From positions 1-8,544 of IMG/VR virus record IMGVR_UViG_648276648_000007: a DNA stretch of 8,544 bases; one strand, 5' to 3'. Below the pieces are notes generated by a model. It was given only the letters and a program-made list of their open reading frames with translations, did not search any database and was not told the origin of the DNA. Each line of letters begins with the position of its first letter. Position 1 is the stretch's first letter. Made by a program: the position numbers and the translations under genes. The DNA comes from a virus (taxonomy: Duplodnaviria; Heunggongvirae; Uroviricota; Caudoviricetes). Shown piece by piece: positions 1 to 8,544 of this stretch.

Positions 1-429
1 CATAACAAACCCATTAAATTCACAATTATTCATGGCGTATCCGCCAGCTGAGGAATAAGTAGTTATCACAACTCGTGAGGCTAATTCATCGGTACTGCCT
101 CCAGATCGGCGAAAGACTATAGGATACCACTTACCGCTTACTGCATTTGCAGGCGCTGAAAAAGTGTATTTTCGCATCCCTTTTTTATTGTCTATTTCGC
201 TTTTGCTGTAAACGTCCAGATCTTTAGGAGTCAACGTAATGTCAGCCGAACCATCGAACCTGACGCCATTAATGTTTATGGCTGTTTTTAATTTCGTCGC
301 GGTGTCGGCGTTCCCTGTCAGCGCCCCGGTGATCCCGCCGTTGAAAGTCTGGCGCGCACTCCATGTGTTAGCCGTGCTCAACAGGGGGATCTTTTCACCG
401 CTGGTACCGAGTTCTCTTAAACCAAGGTT
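1..429 (-). CDS. Phage tail-fibre C-terminal variable cassette (Sv'-type), partial; 143 codons from the crossover site to the window edge, no start codon of its own
   Basis: Minus-strand translation from 429 down to 1 has no stop and reads NLGLRELGTSGEKIPLLSTANTWSARQTFNGGITGALTGNADTATKLKTAININGVRFDGSADITLTPKDLDVYSKSEIDNKKG..., a pattern I recognise from P1 S / Mu S / P2 H-type tail fibres. It begins at the inversion site beside the invertase. Absent from the ORF track because it has no ATG and leaves the window. Confidence 0.8.
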
Positions 430-437
430 TAGGATTG
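412..437. other. Site-specific inversion crossover site (cix/gix-like): 12-bp imperfect inverted repeats around a 2-bp core
   Basis: TTCTCTTAAACC-AA-GGTTTAGGATTG. The inner 6 bp of each arm (TAAACC / GGTTTA) are a perfect inverted repeat, 8 of 12 arm positions match, and the centre is an AA dinucleotide, as in Gin/Cin/Hin/Pin sites. It lies at the junction of the tail-fibre cassette and the invertase gene. Confidence 0.65.
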
Positions 438-989
438 AAATGATGACGCAGGAAACTTTTTATAAAGCGTGGAAACAGCAACATCATAGATGATTGCAAC
501 CTGCTTACGGGGGATGCCATTCTCCAGCAATCGACGCATTTGCTGCCATGTTTCTTCTTGGTATTTAGGCCGACGGCCTCCTATTCGACCTTCTGCGCGA
601 GCTGCATCAAGTCCAGCGCGTGTACGTTCAACGATAAGCTCACGTTCCATTTCTGCCAGCGCCCCCATTACGTGAAAGAAAAAGCGCCCCATTGGTGTAC
701 TGGTGTCGATGGAGTCAGTGAGACTCCGGAAGTTAATTCCTCTGTCACGCAGCTCCTCCACCAGCACAACCAAGTGACGCATGCTGCGCCCAAGACGATC
801 TAACTTCCATACGACCAGGGTGTCACCTCTGGAAAGCATACGCAAAACCTTTCTTAGCCCAGGGCGTTCAGCCTTTTTGCCGCTCGCCTTATCCTCAAAA
901 ATTAGCTCACATCCTGCGCTTTCAAGGGCATTTCGTTGTAAAGCAGTGTTTTGTTCATTTGTTGATACGCGTACATAGCCTATTAGCAT
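429..989 (-). CDS. cin: Serine recombinase, DNA invertase of the Cin/Gin/Pin/Hin family (186 aa)
   Basis: The ORF translation begins MLIGYVRVSTNEQNTALQRNAL and contains VVWKLDRLGRSMRHL, GINFRSLTDSIDTSTPMGRFFFHVMGALAEMERELI and C-terminal IPRKQVAIIYDVAVSTLYKKF, near-identical in pattern to Cin/Gin/Pin/Hin. Catalytic Ser is S9 in YVRVST. The symbol cin is chosen from the P1-like neighbourhood; pin or gin orthology cannot be excluded without alignment. Confidence 0.95.
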   Translation of the reverse strand: MLIGYVRVSTNEQNTALQRNALESAGCELIFEDKASGKKAERPGLRKVLRMLSRGDTLVVWKLDRLGRSMRHLVVLVEELRDRGINFRSLTDSIDTSTPMGRFFFHVMGALAEMERELIVERTRAGLDAARAEGRIGGRRPKYQEETWQQMRRLLENGIPRKQVAIIYDVAVSTLYKKFPASSFQS

Positions 990-1116
990 ATTTTCTGCTC
1001 ACTATCGTTATTTATAGCAAGCTGCGGATTTTAATTAACAAAAACCAGTATGTGTGGAAATCACAAAGTACATACCGTTTCCCAATGATATTTAATTCAC
1101 TATTAAGGAAATAGTT
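990..1116. promoter_or_regulatory. Divergent intergenic promoter region between the invertase gene (leftward) and the lyd/dar-type operon (rightward)
   Basis: 127 bp AT-rich spacer between two divergently oriented start codons; AGGA sits 7 nt upstream of the ATG at 1117. Exact -10/-35 elements were not assigned. Confidence 0.4.
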
Positions 1117-1398
1117 ATGTGTGATTTCACAATAATGCTCCTCTCCATCCTTGGCGGGGTGCATTCGTTTCTGAATGGGGTTCGTGAAAAACGTTACGAA
1201 GCGTCATGCAGGCAATTGATGGCCGAGTGTATTGCTGCCGTACTTGCAGGCTTTATAGGCATGTATTTCGCGGAATATAAGGGTATGGATGAAAGTCTTC
1301 AGAATTGCGTGACTATTATTTGCAGCATCAATAACAGGCTCATTCTTGAAAAGTTACAAAGGATTATCGATTCGCACCTCAATAGAAATGCCTCTTAA
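1117..1398 (+). CDS. Small two-TM membrane protein, holin-like (LydC-like position), 93 aa
   Basis: Two hydrophobic segments (IMLLSILGGVHSFL and IAAVLAGFIGMYF) followed by a charged C-terminal tail; AGGA RBS 7 nt upstream; same architecture as the next ORF. Confidence 0.6.
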   Translation: MCDFTIMLLSILGGVHSFLNGVREKRYEASCRQLMAECIAAVLAGFIGMYFAEYKGMDESLQNCVTIICSINNRLILEKLQRIIDSHLNRNAS

Positions 1399-1465
1399 GC
1401 AACAAATGACCGGTTGAGAAGTTACTTTGCATACCATTACCTCCTGACAACGTAGGAGGGAACTT

Positions 1466-1795
1466 GTGCTTGACACACAGGAATTAGCTCCAGTTGCTAT
1501 TGCGCTCCTGCTTTCAGTAATTGGTGGGATAGGCACGTTCCTGATGGATGTCCGAGACGGTCGCCAGTCTGGCAATTTGTTAGGATTGGTTACGGAGATC
1601 TTTGTTGCAGTGACAGCTGGCGCGGTGGCGTACCTATTGGGGCAACACGAGGGCTGGGAGTTATCAATTACGTACTTAATGGTAACGATAGCCAGCAATA
1701 ACGGTCATGAGGTGATTTCAGGGATGAAACGAGTGAATATCGATAGCATTCTGAATGTTCTTACAAGTTTGGTGAAAAAGGGAGGCGGGAAATGA
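1466..1795 (+). CDS. lydA: Two-TM holin-like protein (LydA-type), 109 aa, GTG start
   Basis: Strong RBS AGGAGG at 1454-1459, 6 nt before GTG at 1466. Two TM segments (LAPVAIALLLSVIGGIGTFLMDV and IFVAVTAGAVAYLLG) separated by a short charged loop. The symbol rests on position next to cin and on size, as I recall the P1 order cin-lydC-lydA-lydB. Confidence 0.6.
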   Translation: MLDTQELAPVAIALLLSVIGGIGTFLMDVRDGRQSGNLLGLVTEIFVAVTAGAVAYLLGQHEGWELSITYLMVTIASNNGHEVISGMKRVNIDSILNVLTSLVKKGGGK

Positions 1796-2235
1796 TTGGC
1801 TGGGGTGTATGCGTTCTTGCGTTAGCCTTAGCCGATCGCTATTTGCTAAAACGCAAGGACATCACGCACTTAGAACTTGGTGATGTGGAAATTAAACCGG
1901 GTTTCATCCGGGTGCCGTTCAAATACCGGTCTAAATTCCCGTTTTTGCGCGGCGCAACGGTCAGATATTGGATCCGCGATGTTCAGAAGCCGACGACAGT
2001 GATTGAAGGCGAACAACGTTGTCTGACGTCGGCTGAACAGGGCGAAAACAGTGAATGGTTGTACATACCCACTGAATATATGGGTAAAGGAGAGCGACTG
2101 TGGCATTTCAACGTCATGGTTACGCATGGCGACTCGTTCATTAACCCGTTGTATCGGATTTTCCCTGTTACTCAGCAAATCCGCAGAAGTTACGTAATAA
2201 ATCTCGCACAGGATGTGTCAGATGACGAAAAATAA
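1792..2235 (+). CDS. lydB: 147-aa protein with N-terminal hydrophobic anchor or signal sequence, candidate antiholin (LydB-like)
   Basis: ATG at 1792 overlaps the stop of the previous gene (ATGA coupling); GGAGG RBS at 1781-1785; N-terminus MIGWGVCVLALALA is hydrophobic. Assignment is by synteny and size only. Confidence 0.5.
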   Translation: MIGWGVCVLALALADRYLLKRKDITHLELGDVEIKPGFIRVPFKYRSKFPFLRGATVRYWIRDVQKPTTVIEGEQRCLTSAEQGENSEWLYIPTEYMGKGERLWHFNVMVTHGDSFINPLYRIFPVTQQIRRSYVINLAQDVSDDEK

Positions 2236-2824
2236 GTATGCAACGGTCGATTTTGACCAGGTTAATGAAAAGGGGCTGAAATCCCTTATCGCGGCGATCA
2301 ATAAAACCGGGGTTACGGTAATTGAGGTTGACTCCAGCAACCGCGCAACAACGAAAGATGGCGTTAAAGTTAAAACCGCAAAGCTGGTTCTTAACGACGG
2401 ACAAATTCTTGCCATACAGGTAAACGATACTGGCGATATATCGTCTGTGAAGCTGAATGGAAAAGCTATTCCTAACGCTCAGTCGCCGGATATCAAGACG
2501 CTTGGTACCGTCATGGGGCAAGCGGCCAGCAAAAACTCCGCAAAATTCCAGAAATCACTGATCGCCAAAGCGAAACGTGTTGCCAATCCGGTAGACAAGA
2601 AACCGGCAGTAAAATCCAACTTTCAGCGCCTGCAAGAGGCAAAACAGCGGAATGCTCAGGTGGTTGCCGCTTATAAGTCCGCGCAGAATTCGGTGTCTTT
2701 CAATCAACAGCAGATCACTGATTTGCGGGCGAAGCTGGATACGGAGACGGGCCGACTCAATAACGAAAAGGCACGGAATGGCGAACTCAAACGTCGTCTT
2801 AAGCAACTGAAAGCAGGAAATTAA
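2213..2824 (+). CDS. hdf: Hdf-like protein (homolog of DarA fragment), about 200 aa
   Basis: Overlaps the end of the upstream gene. Carries the block ...LNDGQILAIQV...KNSAKFQK followed by a Lys/Gln-rich coiled-coil tail, which recurs in the next, larger gene. An alternative start at ATG 2222 has better spacing to AGGA at 2209-2212. Confidence 0.7.
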   Translation: MCQMTKNKYATVDFDQVNEKGLKSLIAAINKTGVTVIEVDSSNRATTKDGVKVKTAKLVLNDGQILAIQVNDTGDISSVKLNGKAIPNAQSPDIKTLGTVMGQAASKNSAKFQKSLIAKAKRVANPVDKKPAVKSNFQRLQEAKQRNAQVVAAYKSAQNSVSFNQQQITDLRAKLDTETGRLNNEKARNGELKRRLKQLKAGN

Positions 2825-2825
2825 C

Positions 2826-4745
2826 ATGGAACAGTTCAATATCAATAAAGGGGTGACGATCAAGCCTGGGCTTGACGTACTTCCCCCGCCAGTGACTGAT
2901 GATGAATATCGCGCATTAATGGCCGGAGAGGACCGCTATCTGATGACGGAATCCAACACCCTGGAGGAAATCGAGGCTACGTTCTTCTATGACACGCCGA
3001 TCCACTGGTGTGCTACGGATTTACTGGAGGCGATTAGTTCTACTCGTTTGCAGTTACACCGGACCATGCAGGCATTTGTCCGGGCATTGAACCAGAAGCT
3101 GAATGGTACCGGAATCTCTGCGGGGAGTGATAAAACGGGGGATGTGGCCCAGAGCGGCGCGCGAGCGATCGGCGGCGCTGAAATTGGCCGGGCACGTAAC
3201 GTTAACGGGCTGCCGGTCCTGCCAGCCATTATCCCGCTCAGTGATGGTCAGACTATCAGCATTCTGTTTCATAGCCCGACAGCGGAAAACCGGATCACCA
3301 ATAGCGATACGCTGGTTGCTTTCCAGTTCTTACTGAATAAAAAAGACGTTACTCACACCGTTGCTCCGATGAGTGGACGTGATATGACGCTGGCGCAGGT
3401 CACCATGAAACTTGCCAACCTTGCAGAGAAAAACTCGGCAAAATTCCAGCGTGCGCAGAAGAAGAAAAAAGCCCTGGTTGATGAAATAACCCAACTACAG
3501 GCTGACAGTGACCAGAAAGAGGATGCCATGAGCGACCTCGCGGATCAGGTGGCAGCGGTAGAAGGCCAGAAGGCAGATCTGGAGCAGAAAATTAACGCAG
3601 TTGCTTCGGAAGCGGATTCTCTTTATCAAGAAAATGAGCGTTTGCAGGCGGAGATTGATCAGCTCAATCGCACTGGTGGGCGCGATACCATTGCTCCAGC
3701 GGGGATGACTGGTGGGCACTCTCTCGCGCTGACGGATCGCCTTGCCAGTATCAAAAATCGTATGCATATGGACGGGGAAGCGACGCTCAGTAATGGTGCA
3801 TTAATGAAGCAATTCATTGGGGACGGCGAAGGGTATATCCAGTTAACCGATCCGGATGGCAGCGTGTACATGATCAAGGCTAAATCCATACAGGGTGTGG
3901 ACATGACAGATGCGATCGGCAAGCTGTTTAAAGCCTATAAAGCGGGTAATGTATCGGAATATCTGGTCCAACCAGAAGAACCTAAACCGGAAAACGTCGA
4001 ACCTGAACCAGTGGAGGATACCGGCAGCTCTTCGCCTGAACCAGAAGTCTCTGTAGGCGCATATCGATATGCCCTGCAAATGCGTCCGGCGGCCCCTGGC
4101 GCGATACCTGAAGGTAACAAAGCAATTCTGCCGCGCCCTGATAAAGGTGACCCGTATTATGAATACGCGCGCTACGGCATTGTTACTTACGATACCCCGC
4201 TTTCTGATCAGCAAATGAGTGAGTACGACCTGAAGTTATTGCCTCGCGAGGATTCTTTCGACTTCCTGGCGAAGACACTTACTAATGGTCCGTTTGGCAA
4301 ATATGCACAAAAAGCTCTGGAGCTGGCCACCAGCTCACCAGACGAGTTCCGCGTAATGCTGAAAACTCAGTTTCAAAAAACTTTCCCCAATATTGCGTTT
4401 CCGGGGGGCGCTGGCACCGAGAAAATGGTGCAGAGCATGATCAATGCATTGCAGGCCGAAGTCGGTGAGATTACTCAGCCAGAACCGGCCCCGGCACAGC
4501 CTGATGAAACGGTTAGCGAAGCAGATGCAGAGGCTAATAAAGCCATTGAATATCTCAATAGCGTGATGGATATGCAAAGCACTGACATGGCGGAGATCCG
4601 TAATGCCCGGGGTAATGCCCGGGAAGCGATTGCAGCCCTTCAGGCTGCCGGGCGTTTTGAGGAAAACGAAGAGCTGGTTAATGGCGCTGCTCGCCACCTG
4701 GCTGATCTGCTGGTAGCAATCCAGAAAGCGGGGGTAGTGGCATGA
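2826..4745 (+). CDS. darA: DarA-like capsid-associated anti-restriction protein, 639 aa
   Basis: Starts 1 nt after the hdf-like stop with AGGA 7 nt upstream. Multi-domain: N-terminal region, the Hdf-shared block around KNSAKFQR (nt 3429-3449), a long coiled coil (about nt 3450-3670) and two Pro/Glu-rich linkers. Size and position match what I recall for P1 DarA. Confidence 0.7.
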   Translation: MEQFNINKGVTIKPGLDVLPPPVTDDEYRALMAGEDRYLMTESNTLEEIEATFFYDTPIHWCATDLLEAISSTRLQLHRTMQAFVRALNQKLNGTGISAGSDKTGDVAQSGARAIGGAEIGRARNVNGLPVLPAIIPLSDGQTISILFHSPTAENRITNSDTLVAFQFLLNKKDVTHTVAPMSGRDMTLAQVTMKLANLAEKNSAKFQRAQKKKKALVDEITQLQADSDQKEDAMSDLADQVAAVEGQKADLEQKINAVASEADSLYQENERLQAEIDQLNRTGGRDTIAPAGMTGGHSLALTDRLASIKNRMHMDGEATLSNGALMKQFIGDGEGYIQLTDPDGSVYMIKAKSIQGVDMTDAIGKLFKAYKAGNVSEYLVQPEEPKPENVEPEPVEDTGSSSPEPEVSVGAYRYALQMRPAAPGAIPEGNKAILPRPDKGDPYYEYARYGIVTYDTPLSDQQMSEYDLKLLPREDSFDFLAKTLTNGPFGKYAQKALELATSSPDEFRVMLKTQFQKTFPNIAFPGGAGTEKMVQSMINALQAEVGEITQPEPAPAQPDETVSEADAEANKAIEYLNSVMDMQSTDMAEIRNARGNAREAIAALQAAGRFEENEELVNGAARHLADLLVAIQKAGVVA

Positions 4746-5107
4746 CACTATCAGCTATTGAGTTAATGGATCTCAGCGATAAGTTGGATGCTCTGATGTC
4801 CAAAGCGGCGACCGCGAGTGGCATGGAGTTGCTGGATATCAGCGATGAAATTGACCAGATCATGCAACAGATGGGGTACGGCGCATCCGGCAGCGGTAGT
4901 GGCGAGGAAAAACAACCTTCGGTGCATGATGGTGTGCCAAAACTGGTTGCTGATTTCCTGGCTGATAAATTCGTCGATCAGAGCACCGATGCATTTATCG
5001 GTACGTTGCAGGACTTAAGTCAATATGTTGGCACATACATCGACCTGGACCAGGTTAAACAGCACACGGCGGCATGGATAGCCGCCAACATTAAAGAGGC
5101 GGTATAA
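4742..5107 (+). CDS. ddrA: Small acidic protein, DdrA-like, 121 aa
   Basis: ATGA start/stop overlap with the darA-like gene; Asp/Glu-rich with a GASGSGSGEE linker; size and position match my recollection of P1 ddrA. Confidence 0.6.
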   Translation: MTLSAIELMDLSDKLDALMSKAATASGMELLDISDEIDQIMQQMGYGASGSGSGEEKQPSVHDGVPKLVADFLADKFVDQSTDAFIGTLQDLSQYVGTYIDLDQVKQHTAAWIAANIKEAV

Positions 5108-5119
5108 GGCGTAACAGGG

Positions 5120-6808
5120 ATGAGTTTAAACGATCAGATAGTTATGGCCACCAGCAGCGGATACAACGGTGTTGCGCCATATACCAGCTTGCTATTACAT
5201 CGGGCATCCGGCATCAAAGACATTATTCATCTGATCAGGCTGCTTTCCCGAACAGATCCCCAGGATGAACAGCTTGTACAAGTGCTTGCGCATTTTGTTC
5301 GAATGCCTGTTGCCGACGTGAATAAATGGTGCCGATTATTCGGTATCAGCAATTCGTTACTTCGCGGCTTGTTAAATCACGCATCCTCCCTTGGGCGCGA
5401 TGGCTTTGACGAGATAGCGCAGGCGATAAAAAACGGAGATATGCCACCAGCTATTGACTGGTTTTCCATTCGCCCAACCAGGGTGAAAGCATTCCTTAGC
5501 GCGGCGCATTCGGCATCACCATTGGCAGAAATGGTTCAGAGGTTGTCGCTCATATTCACAGACCATACCGCGTTGGGTGATCTGACTCTGGACGAGATGA
5601 AAGAAGCCTCCATTCAGTGGGCCGATCAACAAAATGAGGTTAACTCAGACTTCTTGCCAGCATTCAGGAAGGCCGTTATTAAAGCGGATGATGCCCGTGG
5701 AATTCTGAAGGCATTTAAGGCATTGCAAAGTCGGGTTAATAAACATGTCGGTGATATCGATGGGGTAACGGCGGAAGGCAGGGATATCCTTAAAGAGCAC
5801 GGCATAACGCCAGAGTTTATTGATGAGATCAGGACTGATATGCAGCGTGAGGTCGTATCGTCCCTGCAAATTGTAGCCAGAGCGTTGGCGGATGCTAATC
5901 CGAAGAGTGCGGCCATTGTTAACCGGGTTATTGGTGATATTGAAGCATCGGAGGGCATGGGGGCGCTGAAACTCTTCCTTTCGCGAGCGTTTAATCCTAA
6001 CGGCAATATTCTCCCTGGCATTATTGGTGAGGCTAAAAGGTATGTCAGTGAAGAAGAACTTGAGCAGCTTGACCAACTACTTAAGCGATTCTCATATAAC
6101 CCGCAGACACGCTGGCAAATGAATCAGCGAAGAATGGGTTCGGTCCACGAGAAAGTGTTATCTGCCATGAACAGTGCGATCGCAAACTCATCCGTATCTG
6201 AAGAAAAAGCTCTTGAGTGGGCCGACTCTTTTATCACGGAAGAAGTGGAAGAAGCCCGCGCTGGACAGAATGGTGGGATAGACCTGCGCAAGGAACTTGC
6301 TGATATTTATCGCCTGACCGGCGGTAAAATTTCGACCTTATCAAAGGTGGTTCACCACCAGGGAAGGGCATATGCAAATCTTAATGGTGTTGTTGCTGTC
6401 AATTTGAACGATGAAAATGCAAGTGCACTGTGGCACGAGCTGGGTCATCATCTTGAGTACAGTAACCCTGGTTTGTTAGAGAAAGCCCGGTCATTCCTGA
6501 AGGCCAATGTTGAAGGGGATAAGCCATCTTTCGTTAATATCGGTGGGCGTGGCAAGCCTGAATGGTGCTTCAGATCTCGATTGAGTAATATTTATATGGC
6601 GAAGGTATACCCGCCAGCCTCAGTAAGTAACACCGGGAAAATTCGGCAGAAATCACCGACTATTTCCAAAACGTCAGCAACGGAAGTATTCTCTATGGCT
6701 CTTCAGTTGTATCATGACAAAGAGGCCGCTGCCGCATCACTGATGAATGGTGACGGATTGCTGGAACTGTTATTAGGTGTGGCAAAGGAGCTAAATAATG
6801 CAGATTAA
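5120..6808 (+). CDS. Uncharacterised 562-aa protein with a single HExxH zincin-type motif (HELGH, residues 439-443); occupies the ddrB position
   Basis: Long clean ORF in the operon's codon context; WHELGHHLEY is encoded at nt 6431-6460; the rest is largely helical and charged. I cannot confirm similarity to P1 DdrB from memory, and I recall DdrB as considerably larger. Confidence 0.85.
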   Translation: MSLNDQIVMATSSGYNGVAPYTSLLLHRASGIKDIIHLIRLLSRTDPQDEQLVQVLAHFVRMPVADVNKWCRLFGISNSLLRGLLNHASSLGRDGFDEIAQAIKNGDMPPAIDWFSIRPTRVKAFLSAAHSASPLAEMVQRLSLIFTDHTALGDLTLDEMKEASIQWADQQNEVNSDFLPAFRKAVIKADDARGILKAFKALQSRVNKHVGDIDGVTAEGRDILKEHGITPEFIDEIRTDMQREVVSSLQIVARALADANPKSAAIVNRVIGDIEASEGMGALKLFLSRAFNPNGNILPGIIGEAKRYVSEEELEQLDQLLKRFSYNPQTRWQMNQRRMGSVHEKVLSAMNSAIANSSVSEEKALEWADSFITEEVEEARAGQNGGIDLRKELADIYRLTGGKISTLSKVVHHQGRAYANLNGVVAVNLNDENASALWHELGHHLEYSNPGLLEKARSFLKANVEGDKPSFVNIGGRGKPEWCFRSRLSNIYMAKVYPPASVSNTGKIRQKSPTISKTSATEVFSMALQLYHDKEAAAASLMNGDGLLELLLGVAKELNNAD

Positions 6809-7109
6809 AATCGCAGCGCCATTAGGCGGAGATGCCATTATCGAATTTGATGATAATGAAGAAGTTTCCGGGCGTTTAAGCATTATCTCCGGTGACATTA
6901 CCGAGGACATGATCGCTGAAGCCATAGCTGGGGCAAATCCCAATAGCTATATGGGATTCGTTAACACCCTTGATGCTCCCGCAAGTGATGTTCTCCGAAC
7001 GCTGCATCTTTACGCTGGCTGGTTTGTTGATTGGCCAGCAGTAGATGGTGGCGATGATGACGACGACGATGATGATTTTGGTGATCATGTAGACCAGATC
7101 GTATATTAA
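6798..7109 (+). CDS. Small, very acidic protein, 103 aa, with a C-terminal run of eight Asp
   Basis: AGGAG RBS at 6786-6790, 7 nt before the ATG; overlaps the end of the 562-aa gene by 11 nt; eight consecutive Asp codons at 7053-7076; roughly 25 acidic against 3 Lys/Arg residues. Confidence 0.8.
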   Translation: MQIKIAAPLGGDAIIEFDDNEEVSGRLSIISGDITEDMIAEAIAGANPNSYMGFVNTLDAPASDVLRTLHLYAGWFVDWPAVDGGDDDDDDDDFGDHVDQIVY

Positions 7110-7175
7110 CTCCCTGATTGTGCAAAAATAATCTGTTCTGATATGTTAATTGTGTACTTAAAGTAAACGCGTAGT

Positions 7176-7203
7176 GGCTTGCTTTAGGTTATGGAAGCAA
7201 GCC
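7176..7203 (+). terminator. Perfect 9-bp stem / 10-nt loop hairpin 67 nt downstream of the operon's last stop codon; possible terminator
   Basis: GGCTTGCTT-taggttatgg-AAGCAAGCC. It is not followed by a clean T-run, so intrinsic terminator function is uncertain. Confidence 0.3.
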
Positions 7204-7722
7204 GTTACCTAATATGTTAGATCAAAAAAAATTAATTTTTGCGTTTCGCTCACCACATATTGAACACTTTAGTCGATCTTTTAATTCTTCCAGAGTCAAT
7301 CCTGAAGCTACATATTGTTTAATATCTCTTCTTTATTGCATATTCAGAGGGTAAAGATATACACATACTAAAATGAATTAGCTTAGCTCGTTATTAATCA
7401 GGATTCGATGAGACCGCTCCATTTTAGGGAATAACATTTATAACTAAAACACATCGTCTTTAACTCTCACAATATAGATTCAATTTAATACCCAATCGGC
7501 AGTAATTAATTTGATTCTAATTTTTAAGTAGATTTCAAGTCTACATCCATTAAAGCCCTGTTAATTAACAGGCTATCTATTTTTGACAGTTATTATTTTT
7601 GTGATAATTTAATTGTTTGTCTTTTGTGCTTATTTTTGATTGTTTTTTGATCTATTTTGTCAATTTTTATTCTGTGAATTGAGTTTTTTCTAATAGTCCA
7701 TTGGGTTTTCAAGGCTATTATT

Positions 7723-7738
7723 TGTGATTTTGATCACA
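7723..7738. promoter_or_regulatory. Consensus CRP (cAMP receptor protein) binding site
   Basis: TGTGA-TTTTGA-TCACA matches the TGTGA-N6-TCACA consensus exactly, with arms extendable to 7 bp (TTTGTGA / TCACAAA, 7721-7740). It lies about 120 bp upstream of the porin ATG, near a candidate -35 TTGAAA (7767-7772) and -10 ATAAAC (7789-7794). Confidence 0.5.
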
Positions 7739-7850
7739 AAAATACCTTGATTTTTATTTGCAAAACTTGAAACACGAATCCAAAAAAGATAAACATTTGT
7801 CCGCAGTGACTTCTTTTCTACTGAAAAGTTCAATCTAAAGGGCAAAAAAA

Positions 7851-8192
7851 ATGAAAAAAATCACAGTGGCACTCTCTGCGGTTGCAGCATCTGTCCTGAT
7901 GGCAATGTCTGCGCAAGCAGCTGAAATCTACAACAAAGACGGTAATAAACTGGATCTGTACGGCAAAGTTAACGCAGAACATTACTTCTCTTCTTCAGCT
8001 AGTGATGACGGAGATAAGACTTATGCTCGTCTGGGATTCAAAGGTGAAACTCAGATTAATGACCAGTTAACCGGTTTTGGTCAGTGGGAGTACGAATTTA
8101 AAGGTAACCGTACTGAATCTGAGGGCTCTGATAAAGATAAAACTCGTCTTGCATTTGCTGGCCTCCGTTTTGCTGATTATGGTTCAATCGAC
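7851..8192 (+). pseudogene. nmpC: General porin of the NmpC/OmpD/Lc (OmpC/OmpF superfamily) type; 5' fragment of 114 codons, interrupted by IS26
   Basis: Signal peptide [23 protein letters not shown], then the classic mature porin N-terminus [17 protein letters not shown]...[26 protein letters not shown]...[17 protein letters not shown]. The frame then runs 8 codons into IS26 (GTVANSRW) and stops. The symbol is tentative: the signal peptide most resembles NmpC/Lc as I remember them. Confidence 0.85.
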
Positions 8193-8206
8193 GGCACTGT
8201 TGCAAA
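8193..8206. repeat. IS26 14-bp terminal inverted repeat (IRL)
   Basis: GGCACTGTTGCAAA at the exact point where the porin reading frame is broken. Confidence 0.9.
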
Positions 8207-8255
8207 TAGTCGGTGGTGATAAACTTATCATCCCCTTTTGCTGATGGAGCTGCAC

Positions 8256-8544
8256 ATGAACCCATTCAAAGGCCGGCATTTTCAGCGTGACATCATTCTG
8301 TGGGCCGTACGCTGGTACTGCAAATACGGCATCAGTTACCGTGAGCTGCAGGAGATGCTGGCTGAACGCGGAGTGAATGTCGATCACTCCACGATTTACC
8401 GCTGGGTTCAGCGTTATGCGCCTGAAATGGAAAAACGGCTGCGCTGGTACTGGCGTAACCCTTCCGATCTTTGCCCGTGGCACATGGATGAAACCTACGT
8501 GAAGGTCAATGGCCGCTGGGCGTATCTGTACCGGCCGTCGACAG
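8256..8544 (+). CDS. tnpA: IS26 transposase Tnp26 (DDE, IS6 family), N-terminal 96 codons, truncated by the window edge
   Basis: Translation MNPFKGRHFQRDIILWAVRWYCKYGISYRELQEMLAERGVNVDHSTIYRWVQRYAPEMEKRLRWYWRNPSDLCPWHMDETYVKVNGRWAYLYR matches Tnp26. The last codons read PST rather than the AVDS I recall (see findings). Confidence 0.9.
   Translation, partial: MNPFKGRHFQRDIILWAVRWYCKYGISYRELQEMLAERGVNVDHSTIYRWVQRYAPEMEKRLRWYWRNPSDLCPWHMDETYVKVNGRWAYLYRPST

Follow-up and report, generated by a model that had tools for sequence, protein, structure and literature searches.

Anatomy of the AT-Rich Tract Between hxr and an IS26-Interrupted Porin Gene in a P1/P7-like Phage-Plasmid

Introduction

The locus described here raises the question of what an abrupt fall in GC content directly behind a phage late operon represents. 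The window, defined here as the whole stretch of 8,544 nucleotides that was analysed (positions 1 to 8,544 of IMG/VR record IMGVR_UViG_648276648_000007), passes from the darA operon into an AT-rich tract, a porin gene, and the left end of an IS26 element. A sequence-only reading had suggested a mosaic junction at position 7110 and, for the porin, a moron or an IS26-associated acquisition, with a prophage/chromosome boundary as the alternative.

Source and Gene Layout of the Window

BLAST searches against phage, plasmid, and E. coli collections identify a P1/P7-type phage-plasmid (Punavirus) as the source type of the window. Typed relatives have replicon calls of IncY or IncHI1B. The gene order was assigned through homology to annotated relatives, and the coordinates of all features are listed in Table 1.

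Table 1. Features of the window, with the basis of each assignment.
Feature	Position	Strand	Basis
cin-like recombinase	429-989	-	homology to annotated relatives
holin/lydA/lydB	1117-2235	+	homology to annotated relatives
hdf (odaE)	~2213-2824	+	homology to annotated relatives
darA	2826-4745	+	homology to annotated relatives
ddrA	4742-5107	+	homology to annotated relatives
shortened ddrB	5120-6808	+	homology to annotated relatives
hxr (P7 odaA), last gene of the darA late operon	6798-7109	+	ORF list; P1, P7, and JL22 annotations
741 bp without a credible ORF	7110-7850		ORF scan
spacer between hxr and former isaB, common to P1	7110-7221		alignment to P1
stem-loop	7171-7208		folding, conservation
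isaB 3'-end relic (last ~35 codons and stop)	7222-7330	-	translation, P1 homology
isaB-isaA intergenic spacer remnant	7331-7364		alignment to L091
AT-rich porin upstream region, GC ~0.28	7365-7850	+	homology, composition
perfect CRP-type palindrome TGTGATTTTGATCACA	7723-7738		~120 bp upstream of the porin ATG
porin gene, first 114 codons	7851-8192	+	homology, profile search
IS26 left end	8193-8544, beyond the window edge	+	terminal repeat, homology

The ddrB ORF contains a 1299-bp in-frame deletion when compared to P1, P7, and JL22. The junction is at window positions 5156-5162, where 5 bp stand in place of positions 3159-4462 of JL22 (L003), and the product is 562 aa in length instead of 995 aa. 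Since 21 of the 477 plasmids that match have the same junction (hosts E. coli, E. albertii, and E. fergusonii), the deletion is an allele that is inherited and does not stem from faulty assembly. The C-terminus of Hxr is an acidic run (DGGDDDDDDDDFGDH), and the protein has no match to any NCBIfam model. Its usual label, "possible repressor, Xre homologue", goes back to a weak similarity in the P1 annotation.

A scan of the window returned no tRNA or tmRNA. No RNA family was identified by Rfam anywhere in the window at E<=1, which leaves no micF- or IpeX-like sRNA near the porin. The C1 operator consensus, with up to three mismatches, is absent from the window.

Base Composition After hxr

GC content is 0.486 over positions 1-7109 versus 0.298 over the 741 bp between 7110 and 7850; the minimum for 741-bp segments within 1-7109 is 0.420. 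The maximum-likelihood GC change point, searched between 5000 and 7850, is position 7101 (near-ties at 7068-7123, log-likelihood gain of 39.8), and it coincides with the hxr stop codon at 7109/7110. No ORF longer than 51 aa exists in 7110-7850. Two ORFs of 39 aa and 51 aa in the AT-rich tract, one of which is gp17 in JL22, had no support and are considered spurious. The sharp drop after the operon and the non-coding tract of about 740 bp described in the sequence-only reading are both borne out by these values.

By part, GC content is 0.366 in the spacer, 0.28-0.29 in the porin upstream region, 0.43-0.44 in the porin ORF, and 0.49 in the operon and ssb. The step is independent of the porin, because pYZLc23-1_142k (L091), which contains neither the porin nor an IS, falls likewise after hxr (from 0.475 to 0.33-0.38) and P1 isaB is itself AT-rich (0.365). 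Coding DNA ends at the step, and an AT-rich accessory interval of long standing begins there.

The hxr-ssb Interval

The hxr stop codon is the left edge of the hxr-ssb interval, or RD-2. In the sections of Venturini et al. (2019, PMC6906374) on hot spots of P1-like phage-plasmids, RD-2 is one of five common hot spots and comprises isaA-IS1-isaB at P1 positions 21,540-24,243. Hot spots are placed there mainly at the boundaries of average-G+C and AT-rich loci, and plasmid pSvP1 is described as carrying a P7 nmpC interrupted by IS10. RD-2 as given in those sections and the locus in the window are the same hxr-ssb interval. In a CRISPRi screen, ssb, isaA, IS1, isaB, hxr, and ddrB were non-essential in P1 (PMC10695390), which fits the tolerance of the interval to remodelling.

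The contents of the interval differ between relatives. It holds isaB-IS1-isaA in P1, isaB-isaA in pYZLc23-1, isaA and another ORF in SJ46, an IS and isaA followed by IS26 and other cargo in RCS47, a dGTPase-like gene in 673R5, and three hypothetical ORFs in Ro157c2YLVW. The porin is absent from these six and present in P7, JL22, and approximately 100 plasmids.

Homology of RCS47, SJ46, and 673R5 to the window is lost at 7107-7109, at the hxr stop codon. Relative to other P1-like lineages, position 7110 is a genuine mosaic boundary, as had been proposed. The porin is not joined there, however: its junction is at 7364/7365, approximately 250 bp further to the right, and P1 is homologous as far as 7330.

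The AT-rich tract can be sorted into four pieces of different history, namely a terminator spacer, an isaB stub, a 34-bp scrap of the isaB-isaA spacer, and a porin regulatory region of approximately 490 bp. Each is described below.

Spacer and Stem-Loop

The spacer downstream of hxr contains the hairpin reported in the sequence-only reading at 7176-7203. It is composed of GGCTTGCTT (7176-7184) and AAGCAAGCC (7195-7203), a perfect 9-bp stem with a 10-nucleotide loop. Folded as RNA, the complete stem-loop has 15 pairs and a dG of -19.9 kcal/mol, with a z-score of -4.2 against shuffled sequences. A 33-nucleotide block containing it is invariant in six sequences with flanks that differ by approximately 10%, and no covariation was seen in the block.

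The "terminator" feature of the P1 darA operon record AJ000741 (positions 8032-8105; L006 1937-2010) maps by alignment to approximately 7139-7213 of the window and includes the invariant stem-loop. The stem is stable and contains G+C, as is the case for intrinsic terminators. A U-tract directly 3' of the stem is absent on both strands (plus strand GUUACCUAAUAUG, minus strand ACUACGCGUUUAC), and the stem-loop was not called in the terminator scan. As the stem is without a following U-tract, the P1/P7-type hairpin is not a canonical intrinsic terminator. In place of this hairpin, RCS47/SJ46-type relatives have a bidirectional intrinsic terminator of textbook form, AAATCCCGCCAATCGGCGGGATTTTTTT, immediately behind the hxr stop codon (RCS47 L005 5410-5445; -24 kcal/mol).

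Judging from the annotation, position, and conservation, there is about an even chance that the stem-loop ends the darA late-operon transcript or stabilises its 3' end. The convergent isaB transcript of isaB-bearing ancestors would have used it too.

Plasmid p13C1065T-3 (L090 3991-4131, aligned to window 7100-7240) has substitutions of the window/P7 type to the left of the hairpin and of the P1 type to the right. It is a recombinant with a crossover inside the invariant 33-nucleotide block.

isaB Relic and Spacer Remnant

Translation of the minus strand of 7222-7330 ends in RRDIKQYVASGLTLEELKDRLKCSICGERNAKINFF followed by a stop codon, and this is the C-terminus of P1 IsaB. Homology to P1 stops with this relic, and the remainder of isaB is deleted in the lineage of P7, JL22, and the window.

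The segment that follows was identified by alignment to the IS1-free P1-type plasmid pYZLc23-1_142k. It is identical to L091 3832-3861 in 27 out of 30 positions, with a score of 45 compared to a maximum of 31 in 300 shuffles. It holds the 9-bp IS1 target, which is CAGAGGGTA in the window and CAGAGGGCA in P1.

In P1, IS1 (L002 6249-7034) entered by simple insertion and duplicated 9 bp of target, CAGAGGGCA. Plasmid pYZLc23-1_142k contains the exact empty site (L091 3842-3850), with 99.6-99.9% identity on both sides. Because of this empty site, isaB-isaA is the pre-IS1 arrangement, despite the name "IS1-associated" given to these genes.

Porin Upstream Region

The upstream region can be divided into a distal and a proximal part. 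The distal 298 bp (7365-7662) were identified only in P7-type or P1-like phage-plasmids (approximately 104 plasmids, 84-100% identity). No donor of this part was found, and none of 80 porin loci from other Enterobacteriaceae has it in the flanking DNA. Positions 7663-7850, the proximal part, are also common to chromosomal porin copies; the Santai chromosome is homologous from 7663. The last 140 or so nucleotides before the porin ATG, including the CRP-type site, are nearly invariant in six diverged copies, and approximately 7530-7720 varies by about 15%.

A low GC content is shared by the DNA ahead of related porins. The 300 bp upstream have a GC content of 0.27-0.33 in 12 of the 13 porins compared (two in P1-type phages, ten in other Enterobacteriaceae). 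The thirteenth, the Santai chromosomal copy, has a value of 0.40, and its upstream region is cut by a TnpB pseudogene.

The CRP-type palindrome is the only match in the window, where 0.01 are expected, and is invariant in the six diverged phage-plasmid copies. In the chromosomal porin copy, the site is degenerate and partly conserved (TTTGATTATGATCACG). A consensus scan called no sigma-70 promoter on the plus strand upstream of the porin, and the promoter-proximal block of 140 nucleotides contains TTGAAA...GATAAA-like hexamers. OmpD and Lc porins are under catabolite control. Positions 7365-7850 are probably the control region of the porin, with CRP as a predicted activator.

Two further sequences were noted in this region. 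A block of approximately 65 nucleotides at 7428-7495 (GGGAATAACAT.TATAACTAAAACACATCGTCTTTAA.TCTCACAATATAGATTCA.TTTAATACC) is almost invariant in six copies, while the neighbouring AT-rich DNA varies by about 15%. It contains no ORF and has no Rfam match, and could serve in regulation or encode a small transcript. At 7557-7572, a perfect 16-bp palindrome (CCTGTTAATTAACAGG) is followed by a T-rich run and is the sole terminator-like call in 6700-8300. It was rejected as a terminator candidate; the outer pairs are not kept in P7 or pSCLS1.

Porin Gene and Porin Unit

The porin ORF is cut at 8192/8193, and what remains is the 5' third, including the signal peptide. The protein belongs to the OmpC/NmpC/OmpD family and is the nmpC already annotated in phage P7. 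The intact relative is 370 aa in length and scores 530 bits against NCBIfam NF007841 (porin OmpC subfamily, cut-off 484), which places it among the general porins of the OmpC/OmpF/PhoE type. The fragment in the window scores 156 bits and covers only positions 5-110 of the profile. The best genome matches have 82% (E. coli) and 81% (E. albertii) protein identity.

Together with its upstream region and its own terminator, the ORF makes up a discrete block, or porin unit, of approximately 1.7 kb. The terminator, GGGCGCTTTGTTGCGCCC followed by T7, is located 157 nucleotides past the porin stop codon in JL22, and it is outside the window because IS26 truncates the gene.

The porin unit is present or absent at one position in close relatives, has its own terminator, and deviates in base composition, as morons do. 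These features support a moron-type lysogenic-conversion cassette with a predicted promoter of its own. The earlier suggestion of a moron agrees with the accessory state of the gene, which P1 and many relatives lack.

The P7 nmpC locus (AF503408 / NC_050152) is between odaA (= hxr) and ssb. It is like the window in position, gene order, and AT-rich upstream region, with 95.5% identity over window 6700-8192. Unlike in P7, the porin in the window is cut by IS26 after codon 114 and ddrB carries the in-frame deletion described above.

Junctions of the Porin Unit

Two plasmids, E. fergusonii pRHB31-C17_2 and E. coli pHNBY4G-2, contain (left to right) hxr, full-length isaB, the AT-rich region, and the porin. 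Both follow the isaB-isaA type collinearly, at 96% identity, as far as the position that corresponds to window 7364, and diverge beyond it. The left end of the unit is placed at this point because these plasmids leave the isaB-isaA type there. L095 likewise ceases to match the isaB-isaA type at this position. When compared to the plasmids with full-length isaB and the porin, the lineage of the window, P7, and JL22 has a 609-bp deletion at 7330/7331; lost with it were 497 bp at the 5' end of isaB and the DNA upstream of the gene.

To the right of the porin, JL22 has a homologue of the isaB-isaA spacer with approximately 72% identity. It resumes exactly at the insertion point, between AATTACAC and TTCATG..., and its terminator hairpin has a compensatory stem change (GGGTGC/GCACCC versus GGGCGC/GCGCCC). 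The isaA ORF is absent from the porin-bearing forms examined, and homology between P1 and P7 is back at the ssb stop codon.

These junctions can be read as an insertion or as a loss. In the second case, the unit would be ancestral to the P1/P7 group and lost in P1-type genomes, and the break would be an old feature and not the scar of an acquisition. Copies of the upstream region have identities as low as 84% in this lineage; the unit is therefore not a recent one. It lies between imperfectly similar 8-bp sequences (ATATACAC ... AATTTAAC), of which a single copy (AATTACAC) exists in the porin-less form, an arrangement that fits deletion and insertion equally. Against a loss, the porin-bearing and porin-less forms differ far more to the right of the unit than to the left, and the missing isaA adds to a picture that resembles the import of a diverged block. 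The unit is also carried by only about 100 of roughly 480-630 P1-like plasmids, and, porins being bacterial genes, it was acquired at some time in any case. A loss in P1-type genomes is regarded as quite improbable.

An insertion is preferred. The porin unit would have entered the former isaB-isaA spacer as a discrete block, with isaA gone, and the 609-bp deletion would later have removed most of isaB in the lineage of the window, P7, and JL22.

Chromosomal Copies of the Porin

A copy of the porin exists in a few E. coli chromosomes; window 7663-8192 matches it at 88.5% identity, and the full cassette, as compared in JL22, at 93%. Its neighbours are a TnpB pseudogene and ISEc16, one on either side.

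Porins of this family are normally chromosomal, and together with the 93%-identical copies this could make position 7110 an attachment (att) boundary between prophage and chromosome, with the porin as a host gene. Circular phage and plasmid records of 90-100 kb, however, continue past the porin into ssb, lyz, and pro of the P1 backbone. Positions 7331-7700 were located in 98 places, 96 of which are on plasmids, and the two chromosomal places with 7365-7662 are presumably integrated copies. The chromosomal porin copies are flanked by IS debris and are common to the window only from 7663 onward. The boundary lacks host core genes; the window contains no tRNA, no integrase is annotated beside the porin in relatives, and a search of 7100-7860 for att-like or IS-like repeats, a check proposed with the sequence-only reading, returned only short matches at chance level. 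A prophage/chromosome boundary at 7110 is therefore considered vanishingly improbable.

The chromosomal copies, as in E. coli O157:H16 Santai (L004 6948-8469), are truncated on the left by the TnpB pseudogene. Their right flank holds the diverged homologue of the isaB-isaA spacer and terminator of P1 that also flanks the porin in P7-type phage-plasmids (JL22 L003 8367-8488). A phage-plasmid, or a donor common to both, is suggested by this as the origin of the chromosomal copies, and export from a P7-like phage-plasmid is therefore possible. A wider proposal combines two readings: that the 33-nucleotide stem-loop block and the isaB-isaA spacer are recurrent crossover points ("boundary sequences") for the exchange of RD-2 cassettes, and that the porin of some E. 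coli chromosomes was exported from a P7-like phage-plasmid and not the reverse. Taken jointly, the two are thought unlikely to hold.

IS26 Insertion

The IS26 terminal repeat, GGCACTGTTGCAAA, is at 8193-8206, and the transposase ATG is at 8256. The element interrupts the porin ORF at codon 114, and the resulting stub is fused to eight IS26-derived codons. The porin is inactivated by IS26 in this molecule.

Two plasmid records, CP063732.1 and NZ_CP122864.1, each align to window 1-8192 in one piece at 100% identity and continue into an intact porin, ssb, and lyz without IS26. IS26 is not known to excise precisely. Neither PLSDB (approximately 72,000 plasmids) nor a set of 5,426 complete E. coli genomes contains the porin::IS26 junction, which is a late event private to this molecule.

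IS26 is the IS that most often adjoins cargo in P1-type phage-plasmids (PMC9600943). That frequency, and its position beside the porin in the window, would be in keeping with a delivery of the porin by IS26, either as an IS26-bounded translocatable unit or through an IS26-mediated cointegrate. Such a unit would have IS26 on both flanks and be absent from IS-free relatives. Here the window contains a single IS26 end, and this end is inside the gene. In P7, JL22, phi456, and more than 90 plasmids, the porin region is contiguous with the operon and free of any IS, and the complete porin is followed by ssb; this is the arrangement that the sequence-only reading had itself named as contrary to its proposal. 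Together with the two identical plasmids and the uniqueness of the junction, these relatives make a delivery by IS26 extremely unlikely, and the proposed IS26-associated acquisition is not upheld. Insertion of IS26 into codon 114 is instead the last step at this locus.

Discussion

A probability of roughly 0.85 is given to the following reading. The window belongs to a P1/P7-like phage-plasmid, and its GC step is the end of hxr and the start of RD-2. The AT-rich tract is a composite, and the porin unit is a moron-type block in the former isaB-isaA spacer, with the 609-bp deletion and then IS26 as later events.

Lysogenic-conversion porins include Lc of PA-2 and NmpC of DLP12. Like these and like phage morons in general, the porin unit comprises a self-contained regulatory region, ORF, and terminator, deviates in composition, exists in only some members of its phage group, and encodes a general porin. 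Unlike Lc and NmpC, it is carried by a P1-type phage-plasmid and not by a lambdoid prophage.

The feature itself is already known, as a described hot spot with a described gene. The fine dissection adds detail and no new kind of element. Compared to RD-2 as the hot-spot sections of PMC6906374 describe it, the added details are the isaB stub, the scrap with the IS1 target, the intermediates with full-length isaB and the porin, and the diverged right flank.

The import of the finding is small beyond correct annotation. As this case shows, an abrupt change of GC in a phage-plasmid can represent the border of an accessory hot spot of long standing instead of a scar left by the closest IS. In this molecule, the gene inactivated by IS26 within RD-2 is a porin with a possible function in lysogenic conversion or receptor modification. 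The locus provides a worked example of stepwise remodelling, which would have run from isaB-isaA to isaB-porin, then to isaB stub-porin, and finally to porin::IS26.
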